Positions 12,919 to 54,715 of a stretch of DNA of 64,000 nt are shown here, piece after piece (position 1 is the stretch's first letter; the number at the start of each line of letters is the position of its first letter). The DNA comes from Octopus vulgaris. Taxonomy: Eukaryota. A program made the position numbers and the translations under genes. Location: positions 80,786,001-80,850,000 of the forward strand of contig OX597819.1 in NCBI GenBank assembly GCA_951406725.2, given 5' to 3'. The notes under the pieces are model-generated. The model was given only the letters and a program-made list of their open reading frames with translations. It did no database searches and had not been told where the DNA came from.

Positions 12919-14747
12919 GTAAATGTTATTTGTTAAATTTCATTAGGGAGAGAATTAGTGTAGATGAGATGCAGTTTGGATTTGTGCCAGGCAGGAGCAC
13001 AACTGATGCTATATTTCTGGTTAGGCAATTTCAGGAGAAATATCTTGCCAAAAATGATCCCTGTACCTGGCTTTTGTTGACATGGAGAAAGCCTTTAACA
13101 GAGTCCCCCACTCCCTTATCTGGTGGTCAATATGGAAGCTAGGGATAAATGAGTGGTTGGTGAGAGTTGAACAAGCTGTGTACAGGGATGCTGTCAGTAA
13201 GGTGAAGGCTAGCAATGTGTATAGCAATGAATCTAGGGTACAGGTAGGTGTTCACCAAGGATCAGTCCTCTTGTTCATCATAATCCTCCAGGCAATAACA
13301 GAGATGGGCTGCTCCTGGGAACCCCTCTATGCTGACAACCTTCTTAAAGCTGAATCCCTACCAGAAATAAAGAAGAAATTTCAGACATAGAAGCAAGGTC
13401 TAGAATCAAAGGGCCTTAGAGTCGATCTAGCAAAAACCAAGACCTTAATAAGTAAGAGAGCAGACAAATCACAAATCCCTTCTGGTAGATGGCCCTGCTC
13501 AATCTGTAGAAAAGGTATTGGTAGAAACTCTATAAGATGTACCCAGTATAAGCTATGGACATGTAAGAGGTACAGCAATATCAGAGGAAGGTTAACAGGG
13601 AAAACAGTTTTTGTGTGTGGAAAGTGCACAGGTACAATAAACACTAAAAATATACAGAAAATAGACTCCATCACATGCCAGTGGGGAAAACTGGAAGTAG
13701 ACAATAGCTTCTGTTACTTGGGTGACCAAGTCAGTTGCAGGGGTGGATGCTCTGAGAGCATAGCTGTTCGAATAAGAAGAGGCTAGGCAAAATTCAGAGA
13801 GCTCCTACTTCTGCTGGTAACAAAAGGTCTTTCTCTCACAGTGAAAGGCAGATTGTATAATGCCTGCGTGTGAACAGCCATACTACACGACTGTGAAGTA
13901 TGGGCTGTAACAGCTGAGGACATTTGTAGGCTTACAAGAAATGAAGGTAGTATGCTTCACTGGATGTGTAATGTCAATGTGCATGCACGGCAGAATGTAA
14001 GCATCCTGAGATAAAAGTTGGGCATAGGATGCATCAGATGTGGTGTGCAAGAGAGATGACTGCACTGCTTTGGTCATGTGATCCATATGGGAAAAGACAG
14101 CTGTATGAAGAAGTGCCACACTCTCTAATAGTGGCAGGAACCTGTGGAAAAGGTAGACCCAGGAAAACACAGGATGAAGTGGTTAAGCATAATCTTTGAA
14201 TATTGGGTCTCACAGAGCCAATGGCAAGTGACTGAGACCTTTTGCAATATATTGTGCTGAGAAGAACTGTCAAGCCAAGTGAGATTGTTGTCATGGCCAA
14301 TGCCACTGTCGTATAACTAGCATATGAAAAGCACCCTTCAAACGTTGGGCAACATGCTGTGCTTGAGAAGAACCATCAAGCCAAGTGAAATCATAATCAT
14401 AGCTGAAGCCAGTTCTGTCTGACTGGCACCAATGCCAGTGACATGTAAAAAGTACTGTTTAACTGTTAGGCCTCATGGAGGCAGTGACAGGTGACTGAAA
14501 CCTTAGGCAATATACTGTTCTCGTAAAGACCTGTCAAGCCAAGTGAGTTTGTAGCCATGGACAATGCACAGTGTCATGTCAGTGGCACATAAAAATCCCC
14601 CACTACACTCTTGGAGTGGTTGGCATTAGGAAGGGCATCCAACTGTAGAAACCATGCCAAATCAGAGTGGAACCTGGTGCAGCTCTTCAGCTCACCGTCT
14701 AACCCCTACCAGCATGGAAAGCAGATGTTAAATGATGATGATGATGA
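12919..14747 (+). mobile_element. 5'-truncated, decayed RTE-clade LINE (RT, Cys-finger insertion, C-terminus, 3' UTR)
   Basis: MQFGFVPGRSTTDAIFLVRQ, DMEKAFNRVP, GVHQGSVL, LYADNL, FCYLGD; stops and frameshifts; (GAT)n tail. Confidence 0.9.
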
Positions 14748-17681: not shown

Positions 17682-18027
17682 GTAAGTATTGTTGTTTTTA
17701 TGTACGAATAACTAAGGTGTGTTTATGATAAATTTTTAGATGTGTCATTGTGACATTTATAAAATAACTGCATATGTGGTTGTTTTCTATCAGCTGTGTC
17801 AGTATTTATGCATGCAGGATGTAAATAGACTGAATGATACTGAAATGTGAGTGTACATGTTACATCTTGTCTAATTACTGAGACCCATACATAAACTATT
17901 TTTAAGAAAGCAAAACATCAACATATGATCATTGATCATGGTAGTAGGAATCAATAACTGCAAAGAATAAACACGAATAACTAATAGAAATGTAAAAATG
18001 GGCTGTGACAGAAAATATTATCCCCAT

Positions 18028-18490
18028 TGTTTAATGTCCGCTTTCCATGCTAGCATGGGTTGGATGATTTTGACTGAGGGCTGGTGAACCAGAAGGCTGC
18101 ACCAGGCTCTAATCTTGATCTGGCAGAGTTTCTACAGCTGGATACCCTTCATAATGCCAACCACTCCGAGAGTGTAGTGGGTGCTTTTTACATGCTACCC
18201 GCACGAGGGCCAGTCAGGCGGTACTGGCAACGACCTCGCTCGAATGATTTTACACATGTCACCGGCACAGGTGCCAGTAAGGTGATGCTGGTAACAATCA
18301 CACTCGAATAGTGCCTTTTACATGCCACCGGCATGGAAGCCAGTTAGCCGCTCTGGCAACGATCACGCTCAGATGGTGCTCTTGGCACCCTACTAGCACG
18401 GGCACAAGTGCCAGTAAGGCAACGCTGGTAACAATCACACTCAAATGGTGCCTTTTATGTGCCACTGGCACGGAAGCCAGTTAGCCACTT
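18028..18490 (-). mobile_element. RTE LINE 3' UTR fragment with several internal subrepeats
   Basis: Reverse complement of the 1451-1797 family. Confidence 0.8.
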
Positions 18491-19088
18491 GTATAATAAA
18501 TTGATGAGGAGTGTGCAGGAGATATATATATTACTGTTAGCTTCTAGAACAGTGATACTAAAGTTTAGATAGTTTGAATTGCCAAGTTGATAGGATACTG
18601 GGGAGTCAACTGTGACATTTATGTTTCTCTCCTGTGAGTGGCATAGCACTGTGACCTTCACTTATTGACTTGACTTTCTCCCTTGTTCTTGACTCTGGGC
18701 TGTCATTTTTGCATCTTTCCAGTTCAAGCCCTGCTTCAGTATCCCCACCTCCATCTAGTTTTGGGGTGTCCTCTCTTGCTATGTGGGTTCCAGGTCAGAG
18801 CCTGAAATATATTTTCCAAAGGGTACGGAATCCCTCTCCTAGGTCTTGTTGTTCTATAACTTCACTGTTTTCTAGATAGGAGTGTTGACTCTAATGAACA
18901 CCATTTTCTACCCCTGAGAAAATGTCCCAATTTTGTCTGGCCTCTATTCTTTGACCTGTCCAGCATGCGAGGCTTTAGCAGGAGCTTGCACTCTAGTGGC
19001 GTAGCTCTTAGGTTCATTGAAACACACAAGGATGACACTATCACAAGGACTGGACTATGTGTTAGGTCTAAGGTGTGATAATACAGTA

Positions 19089-19338
19089 CTAGGTGTGATC
19101 ATAAAGTATCGTGTCTGGTACTATAAAAAGAAAACTACAATATTAATTCAGCATTCAATCTCTTTTGAAGTAGTCTTCTTCTGAAGAGACACACTTTTCC
19201 CAGCATCATTTCCATTGATGGAAGCATTCCTGGAACTCCAGTTTCTGGGATAGGAAGCAGCTGCCTCATTGCATTCTTTTGGATTTCTTCAATGTCTTGA
19301 AATCTTGTTCTTTTCAAGTGGTATTTGATTTTTGGAAA
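19089..19338 (-). mobile_element. mariner transposase C-terminal relic
   Basis: LKRTRFQDIEEIQKNAMRQLLPIPE...CFHQWK*CWEKCVSSEEDYF. Confidence 0.7.
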
Positions 19339-19398
19339 GATTCTTGGTCATAATAATCAAGCCATGTCTTTTTCCATGAACACACACACACACACTCG

Positions 19399-19434
<36 letters not shown>

Positions 19435-19504
19435 TATGTATTATTATTATATATATATAAAATCCTTTGTATCATTTGACAGAGTAAGTTATAAATAGTT
19501 TCAC

Positions 19505-19547
<43 letters not shown>

Positions 19548-19815
19548 TATATAATTAGGCTTCAGTAAAATAATTTACTTTACCACACACCAAACTTTTA
19601 GAAATAGCAGCCAAAAAATCTTAGCTATTTCTTATACTATAAGAAAAATCTCCCAGACAATGCATACTCAAAAATAATTCACACAGTTATAGAGGGAAAA
19701 ATAACGAAAGATCACATGTACATAAGATCTTATGTACGTGTGATCTTTTGGCTGCTATTTCTAAAAGTTTGGTGTGTGGTAAAGTAAATTATTTTACTGA
19801 ACCCTAATTATATAA
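19548..19815. repeat. asymmetric fold-back element
   Basis: About 70-bp inverted repeats (19548-19617 vs 19746-19815) plus a 42-bp internal palindrome at 19707-19748. Confidence 0.75.
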
Positions 19816-20290
19816 CATAATGTTTTAAATATACCGTAAATGGTCTTTTTACATACTGAACACTACTTGGTAAAATTAATTAATAATTAATTAATTTTAC
19901 CCTTTTATTATTGATTATATATATATATATATGTATACACATGTATGTATGTTCCTTATGCATTCCAAAAATGAGTTGCTGATTTTGATGTTTGGGGTAT
20001 CAAAAGATTCAGTAAGATTTCAGCTACCAACTAAACTATATTTTCATTCACATATTTGCATTACAAAAATTGGACATTATCATTTTTCGTTTAGTCACCT
20101 ATTGTAAATGACATCTTTTACCACCACCACCACAATAACAATGATGCCACATTTTCTTATATGATTGTGTTTACGTGTTCATTATGTAGGCTAGGCCATC
20201 ATCAATGTTCATTAATTTCCATAATTTTTTAAATTTTATTTACTTTTGTTTTAAAGTGAAAGTGAAAGATGTATGTATATGTATATATGT

Positions 20291-20380
20291 ATGTTGTCAT
20301 GTATACGTATGTTGTCATGTATACCTATGTTGTCATGTATACATATGTTGTCATGTATACATACGTTGTCATGTATACAT
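20291..20380. repeat. 18-bp minisatellite, 5 copies
   Basis: Unit atgttgtcatgtatacNt. Confidence 0.85.
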
Positions 20381-22366
20381 ACATATGCATACATCTTTTT
20401 TGTAGGTGCATGTGTGTGTGTGATTGAGTGAGTGAATGTGTGTGTCCTCATGTATGTATAAGTGGCACTCACTCTCTTTCAAACATACACACACATCTAT
20501 TTCATATACATGTTCATACATCTTTCACTTTCTCCTATCTTTCACTTTAAATCAAAAATAAATAAATAAAAATAATTTACAGAAATTAACAAACAAAACA
20601 GCTGAACCGGATGACAGTTTGTTGACAACTTTGAGAGTTATGACAAAGCATAGCCGCTTCTACTTAATAAACCATGTTTTTCACTCAACAACTCTTTTTT
20701 TACAACTAAAATAACCTCAGCAACTATGTGGGTCACACAATTTTGAGGTCATTATCGCACAATATTTCAATTTGATTTTAATGTTTCACTCACGAATGAT
20801 GTTTCATGCATGCGTAGAATTCTAGTCAGACAAACATTTATAAACATGTACACATAAATATTGTATTAAAATAACCCATAATTTAATTGCATTAAAAGAC
20901 ATCTGTTTCTCTATATGTTATGAGAAAATATAGTCTCTCTCTCTCTCTCTCACACAAAAAAGATGTTGGCATATGTTTAAAGTTAGGGTTACACCAAAAA
21001 CAGGTGCTGCCTATTTATGCATATGTATATGAAAGATAATGTGTGTATGTGTGTGTGAGAAAGAAAGAAAGAAAGAAAGAGTGAGTGCCACTTACACATA
21101 CATGCAAAAAAATTCTTACATCATAGCACACACCTTCACTCACTCTCTTCTTCTCTCTCTCTCTCTCTTCTTCTCTCTCTCTCTCTCCTGTCCATTTCAT
21201 ATACACGTACATCTTTCAATTTCTCTTCTCTTTTACTCTCTCCTATCACTTCAAAGCAAATGTTGCCTTTTCATTTTATCCTCTCTTTCAATTTCTGCTC
21301 TCTTCAAAGCATAAAGAAATTTCAAAGAATTTACGGAAATTAAAATGAACAATCGTATAATCCCATAAATGTTGAGCTGATGACTTTGGTTCTTCAAATG
21401 AAAGAATGCCATAAAATAACTTCCTTTGACACACACATGCACACAAACACATACACACACTCTAACTAAAACCTCTGTATGAATTATGTTATTTCTTGCA
21501 GTGTGCACATGCAAATTTAAAGCTCAAGTCCAATTAAAATTATCTTTTTCTACTATGTAATTTGTGTTTGCGATGAATGTATTTAAAAACCTGACCTTCG
21601 ATATAAGCTTAAAAGAAAGTTTTCCCAGAAATCCTGTCCTTTACCTCTTCTTTCTAGCATGTTCAAGGTGACATTTCCACTTCCCCACTATATTTTTTCC
21701 TTAAATTTCTTCCGATTCCTATGTTTGTGATACAGGACACCCACAAAACACATTCACAATATTTTAATTTTCTCCCTCTCCACACCAAATTCATTTTTTT
21801 ACTTTTTCCAAATATTTTTTTCTTCATGGAGAAAACACAGAGAGTACGAATCTTTAAGAATTTTCCTCATCACCTCACCACTTTCAAAAAGCTACACACT
21901 TCCAATGTTTCACTTTCAGCTTTTTTGAAAGCGGGGGAAGTTTCTTCAAAAATAATGTTGTTTACCTGTGGTTTCTAGCATGTCGTGTTTTCTGTTGGTA
22001 GTCTAGTATTTTTTTAAGCCTGCTATTTCAGTAGAATTCTACGCATGTGGGAAACATCAGACTAAAGTGAATGCAAGTAGGTGATCGGTGAGCAAGGTGG
22101 TGGAAGGGGTATTGAGCGTTTCTTTAAGAAAAATTCAACTATAAAAAGTATATCTATTTCCCAGATCCGTAATCTCTGTATTCCATTATTCCATTAACTA
22201 TATATCAGTGGTGCCAATTCTGCCCATAAGAAAGGAGCAAATAATACAATGTGCCTGTAGGTCATGACACCTGGGCAATGCCAGGATGCATCATTTATAT
22301 ATATATAAAATGTGTGTGTGTGTATGTATGAATATATGCATATATTTGTACATACGTGTATGTATA

Positions 22367-22415
<49 letters not shown>

Positions 22416-23748
22416 TAGCTGAAGGTGACCCGCTCTACGCGCGGGTAAGAGTGTGGGTGTTACTTTCTGTTGCTTCCTTTCAGCACGTAAAAAGCACCAT
22501 CCGAACGTGGCCGATTGCAGCACCGCCTTGACTTGCTTCTGTGCTGGTGGCACGTAAAAAGCACCAACCGATCGTTGCCACTGCGAGCTCCCCTGGCACC
22601 AGTGCCGTCGGCACGAAAAAAGCACTCACTACACTCACAGTGTGGTTGGCGTTAGAAAGGTCATCCACCTGTAGAAACACTGCCAGATCAGACTGGAGCC
22701 TGGTGCAGCCTCCTGGCTTCCGAGACCCGGTCACACTGCCCAACCCGTATTTGTTTCTCTCCGTATTTGTTTCTCTCTCCTTTCTCTCTCACTTTCCCAC
22801 TCTCTTACTTTTCTTTTCTCTCTGACTCTCCCTCGCTTTCTCTTACTCTCTATCTTTATCTATCTCTCTCCCATTTATAAACAACAGAAGATCTTGAGTA
22901 AGTTGAGAAATAAAATATTTAGAAAGATCAATCAGAAATATGAGGCAGTGGCAATGGAAAGGTCTGCTTCAAGGCAGACAGCAAAACGCTAACATTGAAA
23001 AGGGACAGACGAACTTGCGAGCTGAATAAAAATAATAAAATATTGGAAACCAAAGTTTGAAGGGATAGAATCTGAGGATAGTAGAGTCACCATGGCTGGC
23101 ATTTGTTAACGACGGACAGCAACGTAGTGACAGTTTAACGGCTGGCGTAAAATTTTGAACTTGATGTAAAAGAAAATTCGTAAACACCAATTTTTGAAGT
23201 GATTCTTTCTCACGACAGTAGACTCACCATGGCAAGCATTCAAAACTTCTTTATCATGGACAGCAACACATTGACGATTAAAAGGCTGGCGCAAATTTTT
23301 TAGCTTGATGCAACAGAGAATTCCTAAACACCCGCTCTTTGAAATTTTAATCCCCTTCCAGCCCCATTTAGACCCCTTTTCACATTTTGGTTAATATAAC
23401 CCGATTTAATTCGGGTGTACTGGGGCCACATTTTATAAGATGAGGAATTTTGTCCTAGAGGTGACGCCTTTCATTTGAGGAACAAAATAGTTGTGATGCA
23501 AACTTGTCAGCACCTTTAATATAGGTGTGCATATTTTCAGGTGAATCGACCGACTACGTAATGCACACATATATATATGTGTATATATATATATGTGTGT
23601 GTGTGCACGCATTATATATACAAATGTATACAAATGAGATATATATCTGTATAAATTAAATTAGAGATAAAACCACTAATAGGCAAATCAAACAGTGAAA
23701 AACCAAAAACAAAAACATAAAAAAAGAAAATATAACATAGAAAATATA

Positions 23749-24660
23749 TCTATATATATAAAACTGTAGTTGTGTGAGTGTCTGTCACCCTCGATTTAGA
23801 TTCCTAACTACTCCCAAATTTTGCGGTGCAGTTTAACCAAATTCGGGTATCTTATAGTCGTGATTCATATCGAGCCCGTCTGGGTATTAGCGCGCGTCTA
23901 CGATGAGTGTACGATTTTAAAAATAATTTAACATCATTTTTTATTCCATTTTAATGCATATTTTTTCGTGTGTCGATGGCGGCGGAGTTGGCGTCCACGC
24001 TCACGCCTGCACCTGTGTTGCTTCTCCCCCTTCTTCCCTCCCTCGTGAAGCTGTGGGGAAGGGAGTGTAAGGAAATCAACGTCGTAATGCGTTGTGAAGG
24101 AGACCAGCGTTCTTTTAGAACAACGACTTCATGGCTTGAAGTCGCCAAAACAGAAATCGCTAAAAAAGCTGAAACAGATCCACAAAATGGCAAAAACCGC
24201 CACAGGGCAGGTTTCCTGTGCAAACAATTTGCACAACCGAATGTTTTAGTTGTTGCACAAATCTTTATATATAAAAGTAAGGTTGTGTGTCTGTCTGCTA
24301 CGATTTAGATTCCTAACTACTCCCACATTTTGCGGTGCAGTGTAACCAAAACCGGGTATCTTATAGTCGTGATTCATATCGATCCCTTCTGGGTATTAAC
24401 GCGCGTCTACGATGAGTCTACGATTCTTAAAAAAATTTACCATCATTTTTTATTCCATTTTAATGCATTTTTCGCTATTATATAAGGGAAGTAACTCTCT
24501 AAAAATGTCTACGATGAGTCAACGATTAAAAAAAAAATTACCATCATTTTTTTATTCCATTTTAATGCATTTTTTGCTATTTTTTTTGCTATAACTCACT
24601 AAAAATGCTTATATAGTTATTTCCCTTACAAACCCGAGCAACGCCGGGCGATACTGCTAG
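23749..24660 (+). mobile_element. nested composite Helitron (two 5' ends, one 3' end)
   Basis: A|TCTATATATATAAAACTG at 23749; second TCTTTATATATAAAAG at 24262; hairpin CCCGagcaacgcCGGG then CTAG|T at 24660. Confidence 0.8.
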
Positions 24661-24850
24661 TAAAATATAAAATTGAAAACTTTAAATTATTTAAATTGAA
24701 AATAAAAATTATGAAATTATATTTATAATTTGTTTAAAAATATATATAACTATGAAAAAGTATGAAAAAGTTTAACATACATAAATACAGATATATACAC
24801 TTTGTATATTTACATTATATATACATATTTATATATAGAACACACACACA

Positions 24851-24961
24851 TCATCATCATCATTGTTCGACCGTGGTCGAGACAATGGAATTTACCATGT
24901 TGCGCCAGACTTCACGGTCCATCATAGCATTACGGAGGTCCTGTTGCTGGATGCCTGTATC
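24851..24961 (-). mobile_element. short 3' end of a second RTE-like LINE, present only in Helitron copy 1
   Basis: Minus strand DTGIQQQDLRNAMMDREVWRNMVNSIVSTTVEQ* followed by a (TGA)n tail. Confidence 0.7.
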
Positions 24962-25610
24962 CACACACACATACATTATATATACATATTTATATATAGA
25001 ACACACACACACACACACACATACATTATATATACATATTTATATATAGAACACACACACACACATACATTATATATACATATTTATATATAGAACACAC
25101 ACACACACATACATTATATATACATATTTATATATAGAACACACACACACATACATTATATATACATATATATATAGAACACACACACACACACACATAT
25201 AAATGAACGCAAGAATATCTGATTCATAATATTTGTTCTCATGCTCGTGTGTTGATTGTTGGTGACAGACATATACTTCAAAGAACGCCGCCGAAGTGAT
25301 AGGAAGGTAGGAAACAGAGTCAGTGAAAAAGAAAGGAAATAGCGATAGTGACAGATACTTTAAATAACCGTAGTGGCATTCTGAAAGTTATAAATGAAGA
25401 GGAGTGACAGAGTACTGGAGGAAATAGGGTGAGGTAGGAAGATGGCCCCTAGAAACCACAGCTTTTAAGATAGGGATTTCTAAGGTAGCCCACGCGCATC
25501 GTCACCTCATTCTACATGTCCGTGTAAATTTTGGAGCGAATCGGACGGGATGTAGTGGCATTGAAAGCGAACCAAGCGGTAAAAAGGCATTTCAGTTTTA
25601 TATATAGAGA

Positions 25611-28600
25611 CTAGCTGAAGGTGACCCGCTCTACGCGCGGGTAAGAGTGTGGGTGTTACTTTCTGTTGCTTCCTTTCAGCACGTAAAAAGCACCATCCGA
25701 ACGTGGCCGATTGCAGCACCGCCTTGACTTGCTTCTGTGCTGGTGGCACGTAAAAAGCACCAACCGATCGTTGCCACTGCGAGCTCCCCTGGCACCAGTG
25801 CCGTCGGCACGAAAAAAGCACTCACTACACTCACAGTGTGGTTGGCGTTAGAAAGGTCATCCACCTGTAGAAACACTGCCAGATCAGATGGAGCCTGGTG
25901 CAGCCTCCTGGCTTCCGAGACCCGGTCACACTGCCCAACCCGTGCTAGCACGGAAAACGGACGTTAAACGATGATGATGATGATGATTCTCCGTATTTGT
26001 TTCTCTCTCAGTTTCCCACTCTCTTACTTTTCTTTTCTCTCTGACTCTCCCTCACTTTCTCTTACTCTCTATCTTTATCTATCTCTCTCCCATTTATAAA
26101 CAACAGAAGATCTTGAGTAAGTTGAGAAATAAAATATTTAGAAAGATCAATCAGAAATATGAGGCAGTGGCAATGGAAAGGTCTGCTTCAAGGCAGACAG
26201 CAAAACGCTAACATTGAAAAGGGACAGACGAACTTGCGAGCTGAATAAAAATAATAAAATATTGGAAACCAAAGTTTGAAGGGATAGAATCTGAGGATAG
26301 TAGAGTCACCATGGCTGGCATTTGTTAACGACGGACAGCAACGTAGTGACAGTTTAACGGCTGGCGTAAAATTTTCAACTTGATGTAAAAGAAAATTCGT
26401 AAACACCAATTTTTGAAGTGATTCTTTCTCACGACAGTAGACTCACCATGGCAAGCATTCAAAACTTCTTTATCATGGACGGCAACACATTGACGATTAA
26501 AAGGCTGGCGCAAATTTTTTAGCTTGATGCAACAGAGAATTCCTAAACACCCGCTCTTTGAAATTTTAATCCCCTTCCAGCCCCATTTAGACCCCTTTTC
26601 ACATTTTGGTTAATATAACCCGATTTAATTCGGGTGTACTGGGGCCACATTTTATAAGATGAGGAATTTTGTCCTAGAGGTGACGCCTTTCATTTGAGGA
26701 ACAAAATAGTTGTGATGCAAACTTGTCAGCACCTTTAACATAGGTGTGCATATTTTCAGGTGAATCGACAGACTACGTAATGCACACATTATATATATAT
26801 ATATGTGTGTATATATATATATGTGTGTGTGTGTGTGTGCACGCATTATATATACAAATGTATACAAATGAGATATATATCTGTATAAATTAAATTAGAG
26901 ATAAAACCACTAATAGGCAAATCAAACAGTGAAAAACCAAAAACAAAAACATAAAAAAGAAAATATAACATAGAAAATATATCTATATATATAAAACTGA
27001 AGTTGTGTGAGTGTCTGTCCCCTTCGATTTAGATTCCTAACTACTCCCAAATTTTGCGGTGCAGTTTAACCAAATTCGGGTATCTTATAGTCGTGATTCA
27101 TATCGAGCCCGTCTGGGTATTAGCTCGCGTCTACGATGAGTGTACGATTTTAAAAATAATTTAACATCATTTTTTATTCCATTTTAATGCATATTTTTTC
27201 GTGTGTCGATGGCGGCGGAGTTGGCGTCCACGCTCACGCCTGCACCTGTGTTGCTTCTCCCCCTTCTTCCCTCCCTCGTGAAGCTGTGGGGAAGGGAGTG
27301 TAAGGAAATCAACGTCGTAATGCGTTGTGACGGAGACCAGCGTTCTTTTAGAACAACGACTTCATGGCTTGAAGTCGCCAAAACAGAAATCGCTAAAAAA
27401 GCTGAAACAGATCCACAAAAACGGCAAAAACCGCCACACAGGGCAGGTTTCCTGTGCAAACAATTTGCACAACCGAATGTTTTAGTTGTTGCACAAATCT
27501 TTATATATAAAAGTAAGGTTGTGTGTCTGTCTGCTACGATTTAGATTCCTAACTACTCCCACATTTTGCGGTGCAGTGTAACCAAAACCGGGTATCTTAT
27601 AGTCGTGATTCATATCGATCCCTTCTGGGTATTAACGCGCGTCTACGATGAGTCTACGATTCTTAAAAAAATTTACCATCATTTTTTATTCCATTTTAAT
27701 GCATTTTTCGCTATTATATAAGGGAAGTAACTCTCTAAAAATGTCTACGATGAGTCAACGATTAAAAAAAAAATTACCATCATTTTTTTATTCCATTTTA
27801 ATGCATTTTTTCGCTATTATATAAGGGAAGTAACTCTCAAAAAATGTCTACGATGAGTCAACGATTTAAAAAAGAAATTACTATAATTTTTTATTCCATC
27901 TTTAATGCATTTTTTGCTATTTTTTTTTGCTATAACTCACTAAAAATGCTTATATAGTTATTTCCCTTACAAACCCGAGCAACGCCGGGCGATACTGGTA
28001 GTAAAATATAAAATTGAAAACTTTAAATTATTTAAATTGAAAATAAAAATTATGAAATTATATTTATAATTTGTTTAAAAATATATATAACTATGAAAAA
28101 GTATGAAAAAGTTTAATATACATAAATACAGATATATACACTTTGTATATATACATTATATATACATATTTATATATAGAACACACACACACACACACAT
28201 ACATTATATATACATATTTATATATAGAACACACACACACACATACATTATATATACATATTTATATATAGAACACACACACACATACATTATATATACA
28301 TATTTATATATAGAACACACACACACATACATTATATATACATATATATATAGAACACACACACACACACATATAAATGAACGCAAGAATATCTGATTCA
28401 TAATATTTGTTCTCATGCTCGTGTGTTGATTGTTGGTGACAGACATATACTTCAAAGAACGTCGCCGAAGTGATAGGAAGGTAGGAAACAGAGTCAGTGA
28501 AAAAGAAAGGAAATAGCGATAGTGACATATACTTTAAATAACCGTAGTGGCATTCTGAAAGTTATAAATGAAGAGGAGTGACAGAGTACTGGAGGAAATA

Positions 28601-28784
28601 GGGTGAGGTAGGAAGATGGCCCCTAGAAACCACAGCTTTTAAGATAGGGATTTCTAAGGTAGCCCACGCGCATCGTCACCTCATTCTACATGTCCGTGTA
28701 AATTTTGGAGCGAATCGGACGGGATGTAGTGGCATTGAAAGCGAACCAAGCGGTAAAAACGCATTTCAGTTTTATATATAGAGA
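25611..28784 (-). mobile_element. non-autonomous Helitron, copy 2 of a tandem dimer
   Basis: Near-identical to 22415-25610; its 3' CTAG abuts the 5' TC of copy 1; 5' TC at 28784 preceded by A. Confidence 0.85.
26982..28001 (+). mobile_element. nested composite Helitron in copy 2
   Basis: Paralogue of 23749-24660 with one extra ~100-bp internal repeat and terminal CTAG mutated to GTAG. Confidence 0.8.
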
Positions 28785-28931
28785 TTATATATAGAGATAT
28801 GTATGTATGTACATGTTATATGTATATTTCTATATATATATGTGTGTATATTTATGCATGTATATATGTATATATGTATACATGTATATGTGTATATATG
28901 TATATATTTATGTGTGTATATATGTATATAT

Positions 28932-29338
28932 CATCATCATCGTTTAACATCCGCTTTCTATGCTAGCATGGGTTGGACAATTTGATTGAGGGCTGGCAAA
29001 CCAGATGGCTGCATCAGTCTCCAATCTTGATCTGGCAGAGTTTCTACAGCTGCATGCCCTTCCTAAGGCCAACCACTCTGAGAGTGTAGTGTGTCTTTTT
29101 ATGTGCCACTGGCACGGGGGCCAGTTAGGCGGTACTGGCAATGACCTCGCTCGAATCTTTTTACAGATGACACCAGCACAGGTGCCAGTAAGGCGATGCT
29201 GGTAATGATCACGCTCGAATGGTGTCTTTCACATGCCACCGGCATGGAAGCCAGTTAGCCGCTCTGACAATGATCACGCTTGGATGGTGCTCTTAGCACC
29301 CTACTAGCATAGGTCTCAAGTGCCAGTAAGACGACGCT
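28932..29338 (-). mobile_element. RTE LINE 3' UTR fragment
   Basis: (CAT)n start and the same subrepeats. Confidence 0.8.
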
Positions 29339-29759
29339 ATATATATGTGTATATATTTATATATGTGTGTATGTATATATGTATGTACATGTATGTATGT
29401 ATGCATATATGCATGTATGTATATATGTGTATATTTGTGTATATTTGTGTGTATATATATGTATATGTATATATATGTGTGTGTATGTATATATATATGT
29501 TTGTGTGTAAGTATATATATGTTTGTGCATATGTATACATATGTGTATATATATATATGTTTTATATATATATATATATGTATATATGGCAAATGAAAGG
29601 CAGAAGATGGAATATACAAGAATTTATTATTAATTATGTACTTTGCCAATAAGCTACCAGGTATAAACTATTCATTTTATTATCCATTAACCAAAACCAA
29701 TTTCCAATTTCCGGGGGTTCTATACCCTTGCATACCAAGGTAATGGATAAGATAACACT

Positions 29760-31830
29760 GGATGCTTTGCTGAAGGACATACACCCAGTAGAAGGAATAT
29801 ATACATGATCTTTTGGAGGAAAACGAGCCAATTTGTATGTAGAATGAGGTGGAAAGCTTTCTTTTTTGACAAGGAGTTTAAACCAAATGACAAATCTGAA
29901 AATGGTGACCTACTAAGAAAAGTATTATCCAGAAAGAACCCACCAACTAACCAACACCTAACCAGATTTGAAGAAGAATTATATAGTATGGTGAAGAACA
30001 TGAAGTTCAGGAAGTACCCTAGAAGGTGTAATATACATAAAAAAAAAGAGAAATTTACTTGTCGGCTTCAAGAAAGATCCGGGGATATTTGTACCGGCAG
30101 ACAAAACAAGTAACATTTACATTGTTGATATTGAACTATATAAGTCTATGTTTAGGAAATATAGACATGTAACAATATATTAAAAAGAATTAAGAATATA
30201 AGGCTACAAATCATCAGATATCTAGTCATAGATGATAGAACCGAACCCTGCATCCCTTGAAAACCCTGGATTATGCTTAAAGACCATAAACCTAACTTTC
30301 TTATTGACCCCTCAGTTAGATTGATTTGTCCTTCTAAATCTGATCTAGGCATTATTAGTAAAAATATCATTGATAGGGTCCTTTAGTCTAAAATTAGATT
30401 AGCTCTCTGGTCCGATAACCAAGAGGTGGTTAGATGGTTCAAGCATCTAGAAATTAGTAAGAATAGTAAATTCTTGCAACTAGATATAGAGAGCTATTAT
30501 GCCACTATTAAACAGATCATTCTTAATCTAGCCCTGATTTTTAGCATGAATAATTCTGATTTGTCCTGACGCAAAATAGATATACTTTCTGTGCGAGCCA
30601 CTCTGGTAGATTTTGATGGTAGATTATGGAGTAGATTATATAGGGAGAATGCCTTTGATACAGCAATGGGCTTGTATGATTCTGCTCAAGCCAGTGACCT
30701 AGTCGGAAAATATATCCTTTCATTAATCCAGCCTTCCTTTCCAGAAGTAAAGGGGTCTGTATAGAGATGACACCTTATTTTTTTCTGGACAGAAGTAGCA
30801 AAGTACAGCTAGAAAGGCATAGGAAAAATTTCTTTAGACTTTTCAATAATTTAGGACTAAACATTACTATTGGTAAAGACTATCGTAAAGTGAATTTTCT
30901 TGACACTACCTTTGGTTTTGATACTGGATTATTTGAACCATTCCATAAGCCAAATGATCATATTAAGTACATAAACGTATCATCCAACCATCCACCCTCG
31001 ATTATACAGGGACTAGTTAAGAACATATCTACAAGAATCTCTAGATTATCTGTTTATAAGAAAATTTTCAAATCACATGCGACTTATTATAATGCTGCTC
31101 TAGCTAGGGCTGGGTACCATGAAAAATGTTAATATATACAAGAAGCTGGCATGTACAACACTGGTAATTCCTTTAACTGTAATACACATTGTATACCACC
31201 ACAACATCACGGTTTGAGAACCCACTCAGATAAAGAACACAGGCCAGAAAGAGTTGGTCATCTCAATGAGCTGCCAATGAAAACTCATAGACATAATAAC
31301 ATGCTTCTTCCAATCCTGTTCAACACACTCGAACAAATAAGCCTAACAACAGATTCACCTTACTGGCACCTGTGCTGGTGGCATGTGTAAAAGGATTTGA
31401 GTGAGGTCATTGCCAGTACTGCCTGACTGGCCCCCATGCCGGTGGCACATAAAAAGCACCCACTACACTCTTGGAGTGGTTGGCGTTAGGAAGGGCATCC
31501 AACTGTAGAAACTCTGCCAATCAAGATTGGAGCCTGGTGCAACCATGTGGTTCACCAGCCCTCAGTCAAAATCATCCAACCCATGCTAGCATGGAAAGCG
31601 GATGTTGAATGATGAATGATGATGTACAGATATAGGAATCAGGGTGTCCTCGATCGGTTTGCATGTTTCAATCAAGGTCACTGGAAAATTTTTTGCTGCT
31701 TTGGACAAGTGTTTTCTTAAATTTAATCGGTATCATGCGATTTTTTAATTGACACACCATAAAGGTATCATACACCAACTTTACTAATTTAGAGCAGCTT
31801 ATGCATCGCATAAACAATAGCAAAATGTGT
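29760..31830 (+). mobile_element. decayed Penelope-like retroelement, probably Naiad-type, interrupted by an RTE tail at 31355-31623
   Basis: RMRWKAFFF, FVPADKTSNIY, LKDHKPNFLIDPSVRLICPSKSDLGIISK, QLDIESYY, FDTAMGLYDSAQASDLVG, LYRDD, VNFLDTTF, YINVSSNHPPSII, TIKVSY; many stops and frameshifts. Clade assignment is from recalled motifs. Confidence 0.8.
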
Positions 31831-32323
31831 GAAAGGTTCAATAATCCACCTACTGGATCTAGCGAACATTTGCATCTAAATACCAACCAAGGAGATGTAA
31901 ACCACCATGATAAACACCAATTATGATCAAGTTGTAGTAGTAGAAATACTTATGATATAGCTAACTTGGTAACAACACCGGTAAATGGAGTTGGGACTGC
32001 CATACATACAAATAAATATGATAAATGCTCATGCAGAGAAAAATCAAAATGTCCTTTGATGAATCTCTGTATGAGTACAACATTTCTTTTTATCTTGTAT
32101 CTTATTTTAAACCTAAATCTTTTCTTTCATATTCTAATTCGCTAATTTTGGCTGAAATATCCAGCTTTTTCAAGTTCTCTTTTGTAACGGAGAACTTTCA
32201 CTCACCCATATAAATAATTCTGCAACACACTTTGCTTTCAGTTTCATAATTTGAACATTTTCATATAAATACATAATCATGTATAATACCATTAGTAATA
32301 TTAATACTAACTGGCTGACATTT

Positions 32324-33570
32324 TGCCCCTGACCCACTTCCCATAGCAGTAGAGCAACGAAACTTGGCACAGTTATTAGTCATTTTCTACATAGGAACCA
32401 CCCAGAGTTACGCATTTCTCCCATCGTTTGATGCGGCTCTGGGGACCGTTTTTGTAGAAGAACCCAGCTTGGTCCTCCAACCTCAACGTGACTTCAGAAA
32501 TCAAGGCTGCATCATCTGGGAAACGCTTTCCTTTCAAAAACAACTTCATGATTGGGAAGAGGTGAAAATCAGAGGGTGCAAGGTCAGGAAAGTAGGGGGA
32601 TGGGGAGGAGTTCATAGCCATACGCCTGTGCTTCTGATCTGGCGACAAGCGAGTTGTGGACCGGAGCGTTGTCCTGCAAGAGGAGGATGCCTTTGCTGAT
32701 CTTGCCCCGCCTCTTGATTTTGATAACTTCTCTTAATTTCCTCAAAAGTGAAGCATAATAGGCTCCTGCAATTGTGGTACCCTTTGCCAGGAAATCTGTC
32801 ATCACTACTCCGTCCTGGTCCGAGAAGACTGTGAGCATGACCTTGCCTTCTTTGGAGGGGGTGAGTCACGGTGCTTCCACTGCATTGACTGGGCTTTGGT
32901 CTCTGGATCATCGTGATGGACCCAGGTTTCATCCTGTGTAATCAGTCTTTTGAAAAATTTTGACTCATCTTCTTGGCACATCTCCAAATTCACCCTCGAG
33001 CACTCGACGCGTTCTTGCTTCTGGAAAGGCGTGAGCAAACTGGGAATCCATCTGTCAGACACCTTTTGCATATTCAAATGGTCATGAATGATAGTTTCCA
33101 CAGACCCGGTACTAATCTTGACCTCATGGGCTATTTGGCGAATAATTATGCGTCGATCTTCCAAAATGGCAGCCTCAACTTGACGGACAGATGCCTCATC
33201 AATGGCAGAAGGGGGCGACCAGATCTGGGAGCTGTTTCCACAGAGTTCCGACCATGTTTGAATTCACGATGCCAGCGTTTTACAAGGTCATATGATGGGG
33301 CATCATCACCATAAGTTACTTTCATTTCATCAAAAGTCTCCCGTGGTGTGCGTCCTTTCAAATACAAAAACCGGATCACTGCTCGACACTCAACAGGCTC
33401 CATTTCACACTTGACTCGGTTCAAACACCTGTAAATCAGAAACCACTATTAATTCAGAGCTGTAATTTGCCACTTACTCTATAGAGATATAAATAATTGC
33501 ACATGCAAAATTTCAGCTAGATCAAACAACTGCAAGTGGGTCAGAGGCATTACTTATTGAACGTCCCTCG
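32324..33570 (-). mobile_element. near full-length mariner (DD34D) with frameshifted transposase
   Basis: ORF pieces 33424-33146, 33164-32805, 32838-32584, 32648-32376: ECRAVIRFLYLKG, ITQDETWVH, LLLQDNAPVH, PYFPDLAPSDFHLF. Right TIR TA|CGAGGGACGTTCAATAAGTAATGCCTCTGACCCACTT; left TIR lacks its outer ~20 bp. Confidence 0.92.
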
Positions 33571-34036
33571 TATGGTGACTGAAGATATTGTGCTAACAGA
33601 ATTGTTAGTGCACCAAACAAAATACTTAGTGGCATTTTGTTTGTCTTTGCGTTCTGAGTTTAAATTCCAAAGAAGGTGACTTTGCCATTCATCCCTTTGG
33701 GATTGTTAAATATCAGTTAGTCACTGGGGTTGATGTAATTGATTAGCTCTCTCATATTTTCAGGTCTTGTGCCAATAATAGAAAGGGTTATTATATAGTG
33801 GCAAAATCATCAGTGCATTGGCAAAAAGATGTCATATGATATTTGTTACAATTCTTTACATTCTGAGTTCAAATTTTGCTGTGGTTGACTTAGCCTTTCC
33901 TCTTAGTTGACTAAATAAAATAAAGTACCAGTTAAATACTGGGGTCAAACTATCAATTAACCACCTAGCTTAAATTTCAAACTTTGTTCCAGTACAAAAA
34001 ACAATTATCATATTATTTTTTTCTATTTTATTTCAG

Positions 34037-44955: not shown

Positions 44956-46097
44956 CATCATCATCATCATCATCGTTTAACGTCCGTTCTCCATGCTAGC
45001 ATGGGTTGGACGGTTCGACCAGGGATCTGGGAAGCCAGAAGGCTGCACTAGGCTCCAGTCTTATCTGGCAATGTTTCTACGGCTGGATGCCCTTCCTGAC
45101 GCCAACCACTCCGTGAGTGTAGTGGGTGCTTTTTACGTGCCACCTGCACAGGTGCCAGGCGAGGCTGGCAACGGCCACGGTCGGATTGTTGCATTTTACG
45201 TGCCACCGGCACGGAAGCCAGTCGAGGCGGCACTGGCATCGGCCACGATTCGGATTGTGCTTTTTACGTGCCACCGGCACGGAAGCCAGTCGAGGCGGCG
45301 CTGGCATCGGCCACGATTCGGATAGTGCTTTTTACGTACCACCAGTCCAGGGGTCCTGGCATCTGCCGGGTGCCAGTCATAGGATTGGTTCAATTTCGAT
45401 TCCGATTTCGATTTCGACTTCACTTGCCCCAACAGGTCTTCGCAAGCAAAGGGGGGTTGGCATGGGTGCCTGTCGTCGGATGAGGTTCGATATCGACTTC
45501 GCTTGCCTCAACAGGTCTTTGTGTGTCCAAGGGAGGAAAGGCATGCATAAGTGCGCTGGACTCACTTGTCCTGCCTAGTTTTCTCACGCACAGCATATTT
45601 CCAAAGGTCTCGGTCGCTGGTCATTTCCTCAGTGAGGCCTAAAGTTCGAAGGTCGTGCTTCACCACCTCGTCCCAGGTTTTCCTGGGTCTACCTCTTCCA
45701 TGGGTTCCCTCAACTGCTAGGGATTGGCACTTTTTCACACACCTATCTTCATCCATTCTCGCCACATGACCATACCAGCGCAATCGTCTCTCTTGCACAC
45801 CACAACTGATGCTTCTTAGGTCCAACATTTCTCTCAAGGTACTAACGCTCTGTCGAGTATGCACACTGACATTACACATCCATCGGAGCATACTGGCTTC
45901 ATTCCTTGCGAGCTTACGCATGTCCTCAGCAGTCACGGCCCATGTTTCACTGCCATGTAGCATGGCTGTTCGTACACATGCATCACATACAGTCTGCCTT
46001 TTACTCTGAGCGAGAGGCCTTTAGTCACCAGCAGAGGTAAGAGCTCCCTAAACTTTGCCCAGGCTATTCTTACTCTAGCAGTTACACTTTCAACGCA
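44956..46097 (-). mobile_element. young 5'-truncated RTE LINE (ORF C-terminus plus full 3' UTR)
   Basis: ORF 45963-45562 MLHGSETWAV...RRLRWYGHVARM...GRGRPRKTW; (GAT)n tail. Shows that the many short GAT-tailed repeats are RTE 3' UTRs. Confidence 0.92.
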
Positions 46098-54071: not shown

Positions 54072-54715
54072 GGATCTTTACCTTTTGACATACAGATTTA
54101 AAAAAATATTTTTTTGTAACTAAGCACTTTCAAACTTCGGACACTGGTAGAATGTTTTACTCTTAGCATTTTTGAGAAAAACTTATATTTACGAAGTAAT
54201 TTCACGTTAAAGTAGGCCTATTTCGGTAATTTCAACCAATCAATGACGTGTATTCAGCTGAATAAAATTACTTCCGTTGTTTGTCAACAACAAATATCGG
54301 CAGTGTATTTTTCGTTTGTCACTGTTATTTATGACATTGTTTGTGCGTTTATACTGGTTTTAGCTTTAAGGTTTTAGGGTTAGGGTTTCAGGGTTAGGGT
54401 TTTAGGGTTAGAGCTTTAGGGTTAGGGTTAAGGTGTTAGGGTTAGGGTTGTCATAAATAACAGTGACAAACGAAAAATACACCACCGGAAGTTCTTGTTG
54501 ACAAACAACGGCAGTAATTTTATTCAGCTGGATACACGTCACTGATTGGTTGAAATTACCGAAATATGCCTTTAACGTGAAATTACTTCGTAAATATAAG
54601 TTTTTCTCAAAAATGATAAGAATAAAACATGTTTTATATGACACATTCTACCAGTGTCCGAAGTTTGAAAGTGTTTAGTTACAAAAAATTATTTTTTGAA
54701 TCTGTAGGTCAAAAG
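54072..54715. mobile_element. long-TIR MITE with central TTAGGG repeats
   Basis: About 260-bp inverted arms starting GGATCTTTACCTTTTGAC; degenerate (TTAGGG)n at about 54360-54450; right terminus lacks its last ~10 bp. Confidence 0.85.

Follow-up and report, generated by a model that had tools for sequence, protein, structure and literature searches.

Results

A head-to-tail Helitron pair in a gene intron

The window analyzed here is a 64,000-nucleotide stretch of Octopus vulgaris DNA containing no Ns. The O. vulgaris protein P0001 aligns to it in ten exon blocks on the plus strand, and from residue 231 onward the identity per exon is 94-100%. Conversely, one exon of the window retrieved P0001 (96%) and the O. 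bimaculoides protein P0002 (91%). P0001 has an INTU/CCZ1/HPS4 longin domain (PF19031, E 8e-12) as well as a below-cutoff match to PF19033; Pfam does not distinguish HPS4, CCZ1, and INTU from one another. One intron of the gene (17682-34036, plus strand, 16,355 bp, GT..AG) contains a pair of Helitrons that takes up 39% of its 16.4 kb. A preliminary description of the window placed a Helitron dimer adding 6.4 kb in an HPS4 intron; the intronic location stands, and the gene we take to be HPS4-like from the length and layout of the protein.

Both Helitron units are on the minus strand. Copy 1 (22415-25610, 3196 bp) has its 5'-TC at 25610 and its CTAG-3' at 22415, while copy 2 (25611-28784, 3174 bp) has its 5'-TC at 28784 and its CTAG-3' at 25611. 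Read directly, the two meet in an exact head-to-tail CTAG/TC junction at 25610-25611 (minus strand). The unit lengths and the junction had been described beforehand, and on re-reading all coordinates agreed. A hairpin with an 8-bp stem, one mismatch, and a 7-nt loop lies 11 nt from the terminus of copy 1 (22426-22448, minus strand), and the same sequence is found in copy 2 (25622-25644, minus strand). The fold of the copy 1 hairpin is modest (z -1.5; 17 of 200 shuffles were equally good). A scan for hairpin ends gave eight further matches in the window. The bases flanking the pair are a T at 22414 on the 3' side and, on the 5' side, an A at 28785, or at 28798 past a short repeat. They agree with the earlier placement between A and T. 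As also described, we see no target duplication, though the flanks are TA-rich simple sequence in which a very short one would escape notice. The pair has the features of canonical Helitrons, namely 5'-TC, CTRR-3' (as CTAG), a GC-rich hairpin about 11 nt before the end, and insertion between A and T. Helentrons or Helitron2 elements (DINE-1-like) have subterminal inverted repeats and a TT target. Membership in that class was rejected, as the ends are TC and CTAG at an A-T site and no terminal inverted pair was present among the 25 longest listed.

The short repeat noted earlier at 28785-28797 (minus strand) is, as claimed, a further copy of the 5'-terminal 13 nt. It starts at the same nick as the unit, ends in A, and is found at the outer end only. 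In the window, the 13-mer occurs at positions 25598, 28772, and 28785 only. We considered whether it is part of the repeated unit and rejected this, the internal junction being without it. The shared nick, the final A, and the absence from the internal junction make the 13-nt repeat a likely short product of nick-extend-rejoin. Both breakpoints of the pair itself fall exactly on Helitron termini with no duplication of the flanks and 1 bp of microhomology at the join, which argues for a transposase origin.

Each unit is a composite, non-autonomous element

The preliminary description treated the unit as simple, but each copy is a composite of a LINE 3' fragment and a nested Helitron that lies on the strand opposite to the outer element and has two 5' ends. 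In copy 2 the LINE 3'-UTR fragment is about 310 bp with a (GAT)n tail (25679-25987, plus strand) and is situated 68 bp inside the Helitron 3' end. In copy 1 (22483-22777, plus strand) the tail has been lost near 22749, with a 16-bp duplication (22745-22777) in its place; X3 contigs (see below) at 22748 carry the copy 2 form. The fragment has about ten relatives in the window at 73-86% identity. One of them directly follows an open reading frame remnant ending at 45562, so the repeat is likely a LINE 3' UTR.

The nested Helitron-like element of copy 1 (23749-24660, plus strand) has 5'-TC ends at 23749 and 24262, a single hairpin-CTAG end at 24660, and A-T flanks. Its counterpart in copy 2 (26982-28001, plus strand) has two 5' ends (26982 and 27498) and contains three 103-bp units, and its terminal CTAG is changed to GTAG (27998). 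The first 5' end of the nested element is closely similar to the 5' end of the outer Helitron. At its 3' end, 53-88 contigs per row diverge at 24661/24662 into varied flanks. Other contigs rejoin the nested family 3' end to a 5' end elsewhere, from 24661 to 23753 in X1 and from 24655 to 24262 in both X1 and X3. Octopus Helitrons of the nested group, therefore, make head-to-tail joins recurrently. Only copy 1 carries a 112-bp retroelement 3' end (24850-24961, minus strand), made up of a 33-residue open reading frame end and a (GAT)n tail, which by resemblance we take to be of the RTE type. X3 contigs at 24850 continue without it.

Stop-to-stop frames in copy 2 reach at most 118 amino acids. A Pfam search with eight of the 32 unit frames found no family at cutoff, and two weak matches below cutoff were dismissed. 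With no longer frame in copy 2 and no Pfam family at cutoff, the unit is non-autonomous; no RepHel open reading frame was found in it. The 20 Rfam matches were all to miRNA models on TA/TG repeats and all below the gathering score.

Divergence of the two copies

The raw global alignment of copy 1 with copy 2 has 37 mismatches over 3016 paired sites and 11 gaps. Leaving out four simple-repeat or indel blocks, 18 substitutions remain over 2723 clean aligned sites (0.66%, 95% CI 0.39-1.04%). They are evenly spread (largest gap 453, p=0.60). Copy 2 has one more 103-bp unit than copy 1, and copy 1 has one more unit of a 42-50-bp array than copy 2. An origin of the extra 50-bp array unit as a long target duplication made by the retroelement insertion was rejected, since no more than about 9 bp of the flanks agree in register. 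The alignment is in accord with the substitutions, the RTE insertion and tail deletion in copy 1, and the extra repeat in copy 2 that had been reported. Four changes are derived in copy 1, with contigs carrying the copy 2 state: the substitution at 24776, a missing CA at 24200, the tail loss, and the retroelement insertion. The 24657/27998 site is derived in copy 2. The copies have decayed independently since the pair arose.

Family variation in reads and contigs

Part of the stretch is present in 20 of the 24 listed sequencing runs (8 studies). We compared positions 21000-25800, spanning the left flank, copy 1, and the junction, with two raw runs (X21 and X22) and two contig sets, X1 from organism A and X3 from organism B. 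X1 agrees exactly with three pieces of the flank; it may be the source sample and for that reason is not independent support. The unit is multi-copy in both organisms. Contig depth, a weighted sum rather than a copy count, was 6e4-3.7e6 in the element bins (0 in one masked bin) versus 75-94 for contigs matching the flank exactly. The drop in X1 depth at 25262 reflects a gap in the 80% sampling and was not used. Over 22765-23417, a copy sampled in X21 departs from copy 1 at 26 of the sites listed, about 4%. The depth, this diverged copy, and the varied flanks of the nested 3' end all fit a dispersed multi-copy family, as regards the component repeats. Raw-read depth was rejected as a measure of copy number. 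The X21 and X22 profiles are clumped and quite different with almost no flank coverage, suggesting the 3% sampling was apparently non-random. Within these samples, 6 of 49 reads in X21 and 4 of 80 in X22 are at least 99% alike. The X21 depth in bins 25508-25800 may come from one junction read or several 3'-end reads and was not counted.

To place the two copies within the family, we scored 27 of the 40 listed sites, leaving aside the 13 for which half the depth could not be attained in X1 and X3 alike. Both copies share, at 20 of the 40, a letter that most of the depth lacks in X1 and in X3; five of the 20 are inside the nested element, where paralogs cross-map. From 22823 to 23417 alone there are 13 shared non-majority sites versus three copy-to-copy differences. 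The sharing of non-majority letters at half of the listed sites supports the two copies being sisters from one already-aged template, and not two random insertions. The template would have been about 2% from the family majority when it was copied. Among the 16 pieces listed, no read or contig spans the 25610/25611 junction or the whole stretch. None of the listed pieces shows an empty site, and no flank-anchored piece extends past 22220.

Discussion

Origin of the pair

The pair is very probably real. Our best explanation, at a probability of about 0.5, is a single rolling-circle event in which a RepHel transposase from elsewhere made two rounds on a donor circle and the product integrated between A and T. 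The enzyme, supplied in trans, would have acted on the circle of one old donor copy that was about 2% off the family majority and already carried the LINE fragment and the nested Helitron. Bypassing the terminator once on the circle would give a dimer, which would then integrate at an A-T site. On this view, the same 5' nick would also have given an aborted nick-extend-rejoin, which left the 13-nt repeat. Such a concatemer should have an exact end-to-end junction and units from one template, as found here (20 of 40 listed sites, 0.66%). The ends, which are canonical and have the hairpin at the Helraiser distance of 11 nt from CTAG, also speak for it. Against it, a remobilized donor should leave near-identical relatives, and few reads of at least 99% identity are present in the 3% samples. 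A template that was old, nested, and 2% diverged suits a long-resident copy just as well. In the preliminary description, the exact junction was taken as expected from rolling-circle concatemers. The common descent this implies is supported, but the CTAG/TC join is not diagnostic because duplication in place, or re-entry of a circle at its own 5' A-T, gives the same sequence.

Duplication in place is a possible, if less likely, origin. A resident monomer would be nicked at its 5' A-TC and the host 3'-OH extended through the unit, after which the new CTAG end would be joined to the old strand's 5' end, which the enzyme holds, to give A-new-old-T. In variants of this, the element's own circle returns by recombination or at its own A-T. 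The template was indeed old, the copies sharing 13 non-majority letters over about 600 bp, and it contained nested insertions; no young subfamily is evident in the raw reads (3% samples). The 13-bp and 3.2-kb duplications begin at the same nick, and the former would be a short product of the reaction. Nine exact tandem pairs of 11-16 bp are present in the window (several of them borderline TA runs), one exactly on the terminus. Donor-site nicking and 3'-OH-primed resynthesis both belong to the Helraiser model as outlined in excerpts of PMC4778049 and PMC5876387. However, a limited search of parts of the Helitron literature found no account of such a product, and the absence of local hopping in 701 Helraiser retranspositions argues against a circle coming back to the site it left. 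A circle could also yield the same 13-nt product before integration; being compatible with either origin, the repeat does not discriminate between the models. Still more tentative is the specific course in which a resident Helitron duplicated itself in place by a nick at its 5' end, with the new strand joined to the old after 13 nt and then after 3.2 kb. If that is what occurred, the locus preserves the trace of a pathway that duplicates at the donor site with neither a circle nor a fresh target and from which tandem Helitron arrays can start.

In an assembly artefact, two haplotypes carrying the insertion as a single copy would have been joined in tandem. The 0.66% substitutions, the polymorphic insertion, and the array-length changes are of the kind two alleles could show; the junction is also absent from independent reads among the pieces listed. 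We nonetheless consider this origin improbable, as the breakpoints are exactly on the element termini with neither a flank duplication nor a gap. Moreover, 40 bp from the 5' end (25571/28745) the two copies agree in a minority letter, at a place where a join borrowed from another dimer of the family should show majority letters. About as improbable is a separate insertion by another member of one small, young subfamily, at the point where the host A meets the initial T of the resident copy. These two bases are a legitimate AT target, the resulting junction would be the same, and self-insertion near 5' ends is described for Fusarium in the parts of PMC5148889 consulted. But AT makes up 9.8% of the dinucleotides in the window, so the choice of this single site needs strong targeting, and the copies are 0.66% apart versus about 4% to the sampled family copy. 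An ordinary tandem duplication by replication slippage or repair, with no transposase involved, might be suggested by the TA-rich ends and the slippage-type duplications nearby. It is very unlikely given that there is only 1 bp of microhomology, that both breakpoints coincide with termini, and that exact junctions recur elsewhere for the nested family.

Age and consequences

The O. vulgaris repeat paper, in the part covering calibration, equates a distance of 0.09 with 25 My (PMC13282606). At this one rate, 0.33% per copy would date the event to about 0.9 My ago (0.5-1.4), and the 2% of the template would correspond to about 6 My before that. It is then likely that, about a million years ago, Helitron enzymes were at work in the lineage of this octopus and expanded introns by several kb per event. 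The pair is without a sign of function and is likely a neutral expansion of the intron. If relatives carry a monomer at this site, duplication in place becomes separable from integration of a concatemer, which the junction alone cannot achieve.

Comparison with known systems

The 2026 repeat annotation of O. vulgaris reports Helitrons in eight families with 178 recently active insertions, and we found no mention of tandem or head-to-tail Helitrons in the portions of its main text available to us (PMC13282606). Among the titles listed as matches for octopus and Helitron, none is on tandem Helitrons. In wheat, circles of the Helitron Xuan-Feng have been shown while, according to the sections seen, a genomic tandem of the element was not found (PMC13286980). 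In the Helraiser model, as summarized in excerpts of PMC4778049 and PMC5876387, the transposase cuts at the 5' TC, DNA synthesis starts from the 3'-OH, and exact circles arise that act both as template and as donor. Like the octopus unit, Helraiser has 5'-TC and CTAG-3' ends, a hairpin 11 nt from the end, an AT target, and a junction that joins RTS to LTS precisely (PMC4778049, in part). Unlike it, Helraiser is autonomous and its junction is on circles, whereas the octopus unit has no RepHel and its junction is chromosomal.

Tandem Helitrons and duplicated 5' ends are known from fungi, according to parts of PMC5148889. The FoHelis of Fusarium have 5'-end repeats of 31-85 nt and several 5' ends per 3' end, resembling the octopus 13-nt repeat and nested element. 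In the same excerpts, though, FoHelis are non-canonical and the authors invoke self-insertion, while the octopus repeat has a length of 13 nt and does not occur at the internal junction.

Reports of head-to-tail junctions and of Helitrons in tandem also exist for the bat Myotis lucifugus (Helibat) and for plants (PMC5876387, in excerpt), and for Hydractinia (PMC11934779, in excerpt). In Drosophila pseudoobscura, Helitron-1_DPe gave 50 junction matches on one Y assembly (bioRxiv 10.1101/2021.06.02.446622, in the portion seen). The bat, plant, and Drosophila arrays have the same exact CTAG/TC joins of canonical Helitrons, read in those excerpts as rolling-circle products. In contrast to them, the octopus pair consists of two full-length composite units in a gene intron rather than a long or centromeric array, and the sisterhood of its units was tested against family variation. 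The head-to-tail arrangement of Helitrons is thus already known, and the octopus pair is a clean cephalopod example of a known by-product.

Nested and neighbouring elements

Each unit of the Helitron pair carries an opposite-strand Helitron-like insertion. In copy 2, the terminus of this nested element reads GTAG in place of CTAG (27998), showing that its 3' end decayed after the duplication. When contigs were compared with the window, joints were found leading from the nested 3' end of copy 1 (24655-24661) back to 23753 and to 24262.

Other elements share the host intron. An inverted repeat at 19547-19815, with 74-nt arms that are 97% complementary and spaced 121 nt apart, is possibly a MITE. 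On the minus strand, a broken mariner-type transposase remnant (32376-33445) retains a Pfam match to PF01359 at 32584-32865 (E 1e-13). Broken frames also lie at 29751-31132, which we take to resemble a Penelope-like element; a Pfam scan of 30698-31129 within them gave no match.

LINE sequences and other repeats

A LINE 3' UTR is abundant, found at 44957-46020 and about ten other places in the window; it contains tandem units of 61-68 bp and ends in a (GAT)n tail. A reverse transcriptase match at 13058-13387 (PF00078, E 1.5e-4) fell below the Pfam cutoff. A degenerate interstitial TTAGGG repeat is present at 54356-54449.

The LINE fragment in copy 1 has lost its tail, and at 22745-22777 the deletion is filled with a 16-bp copy of neighbouring sequence, with 4 bp of microhomology. 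By inference, this fill resembles templated end-joining repair.
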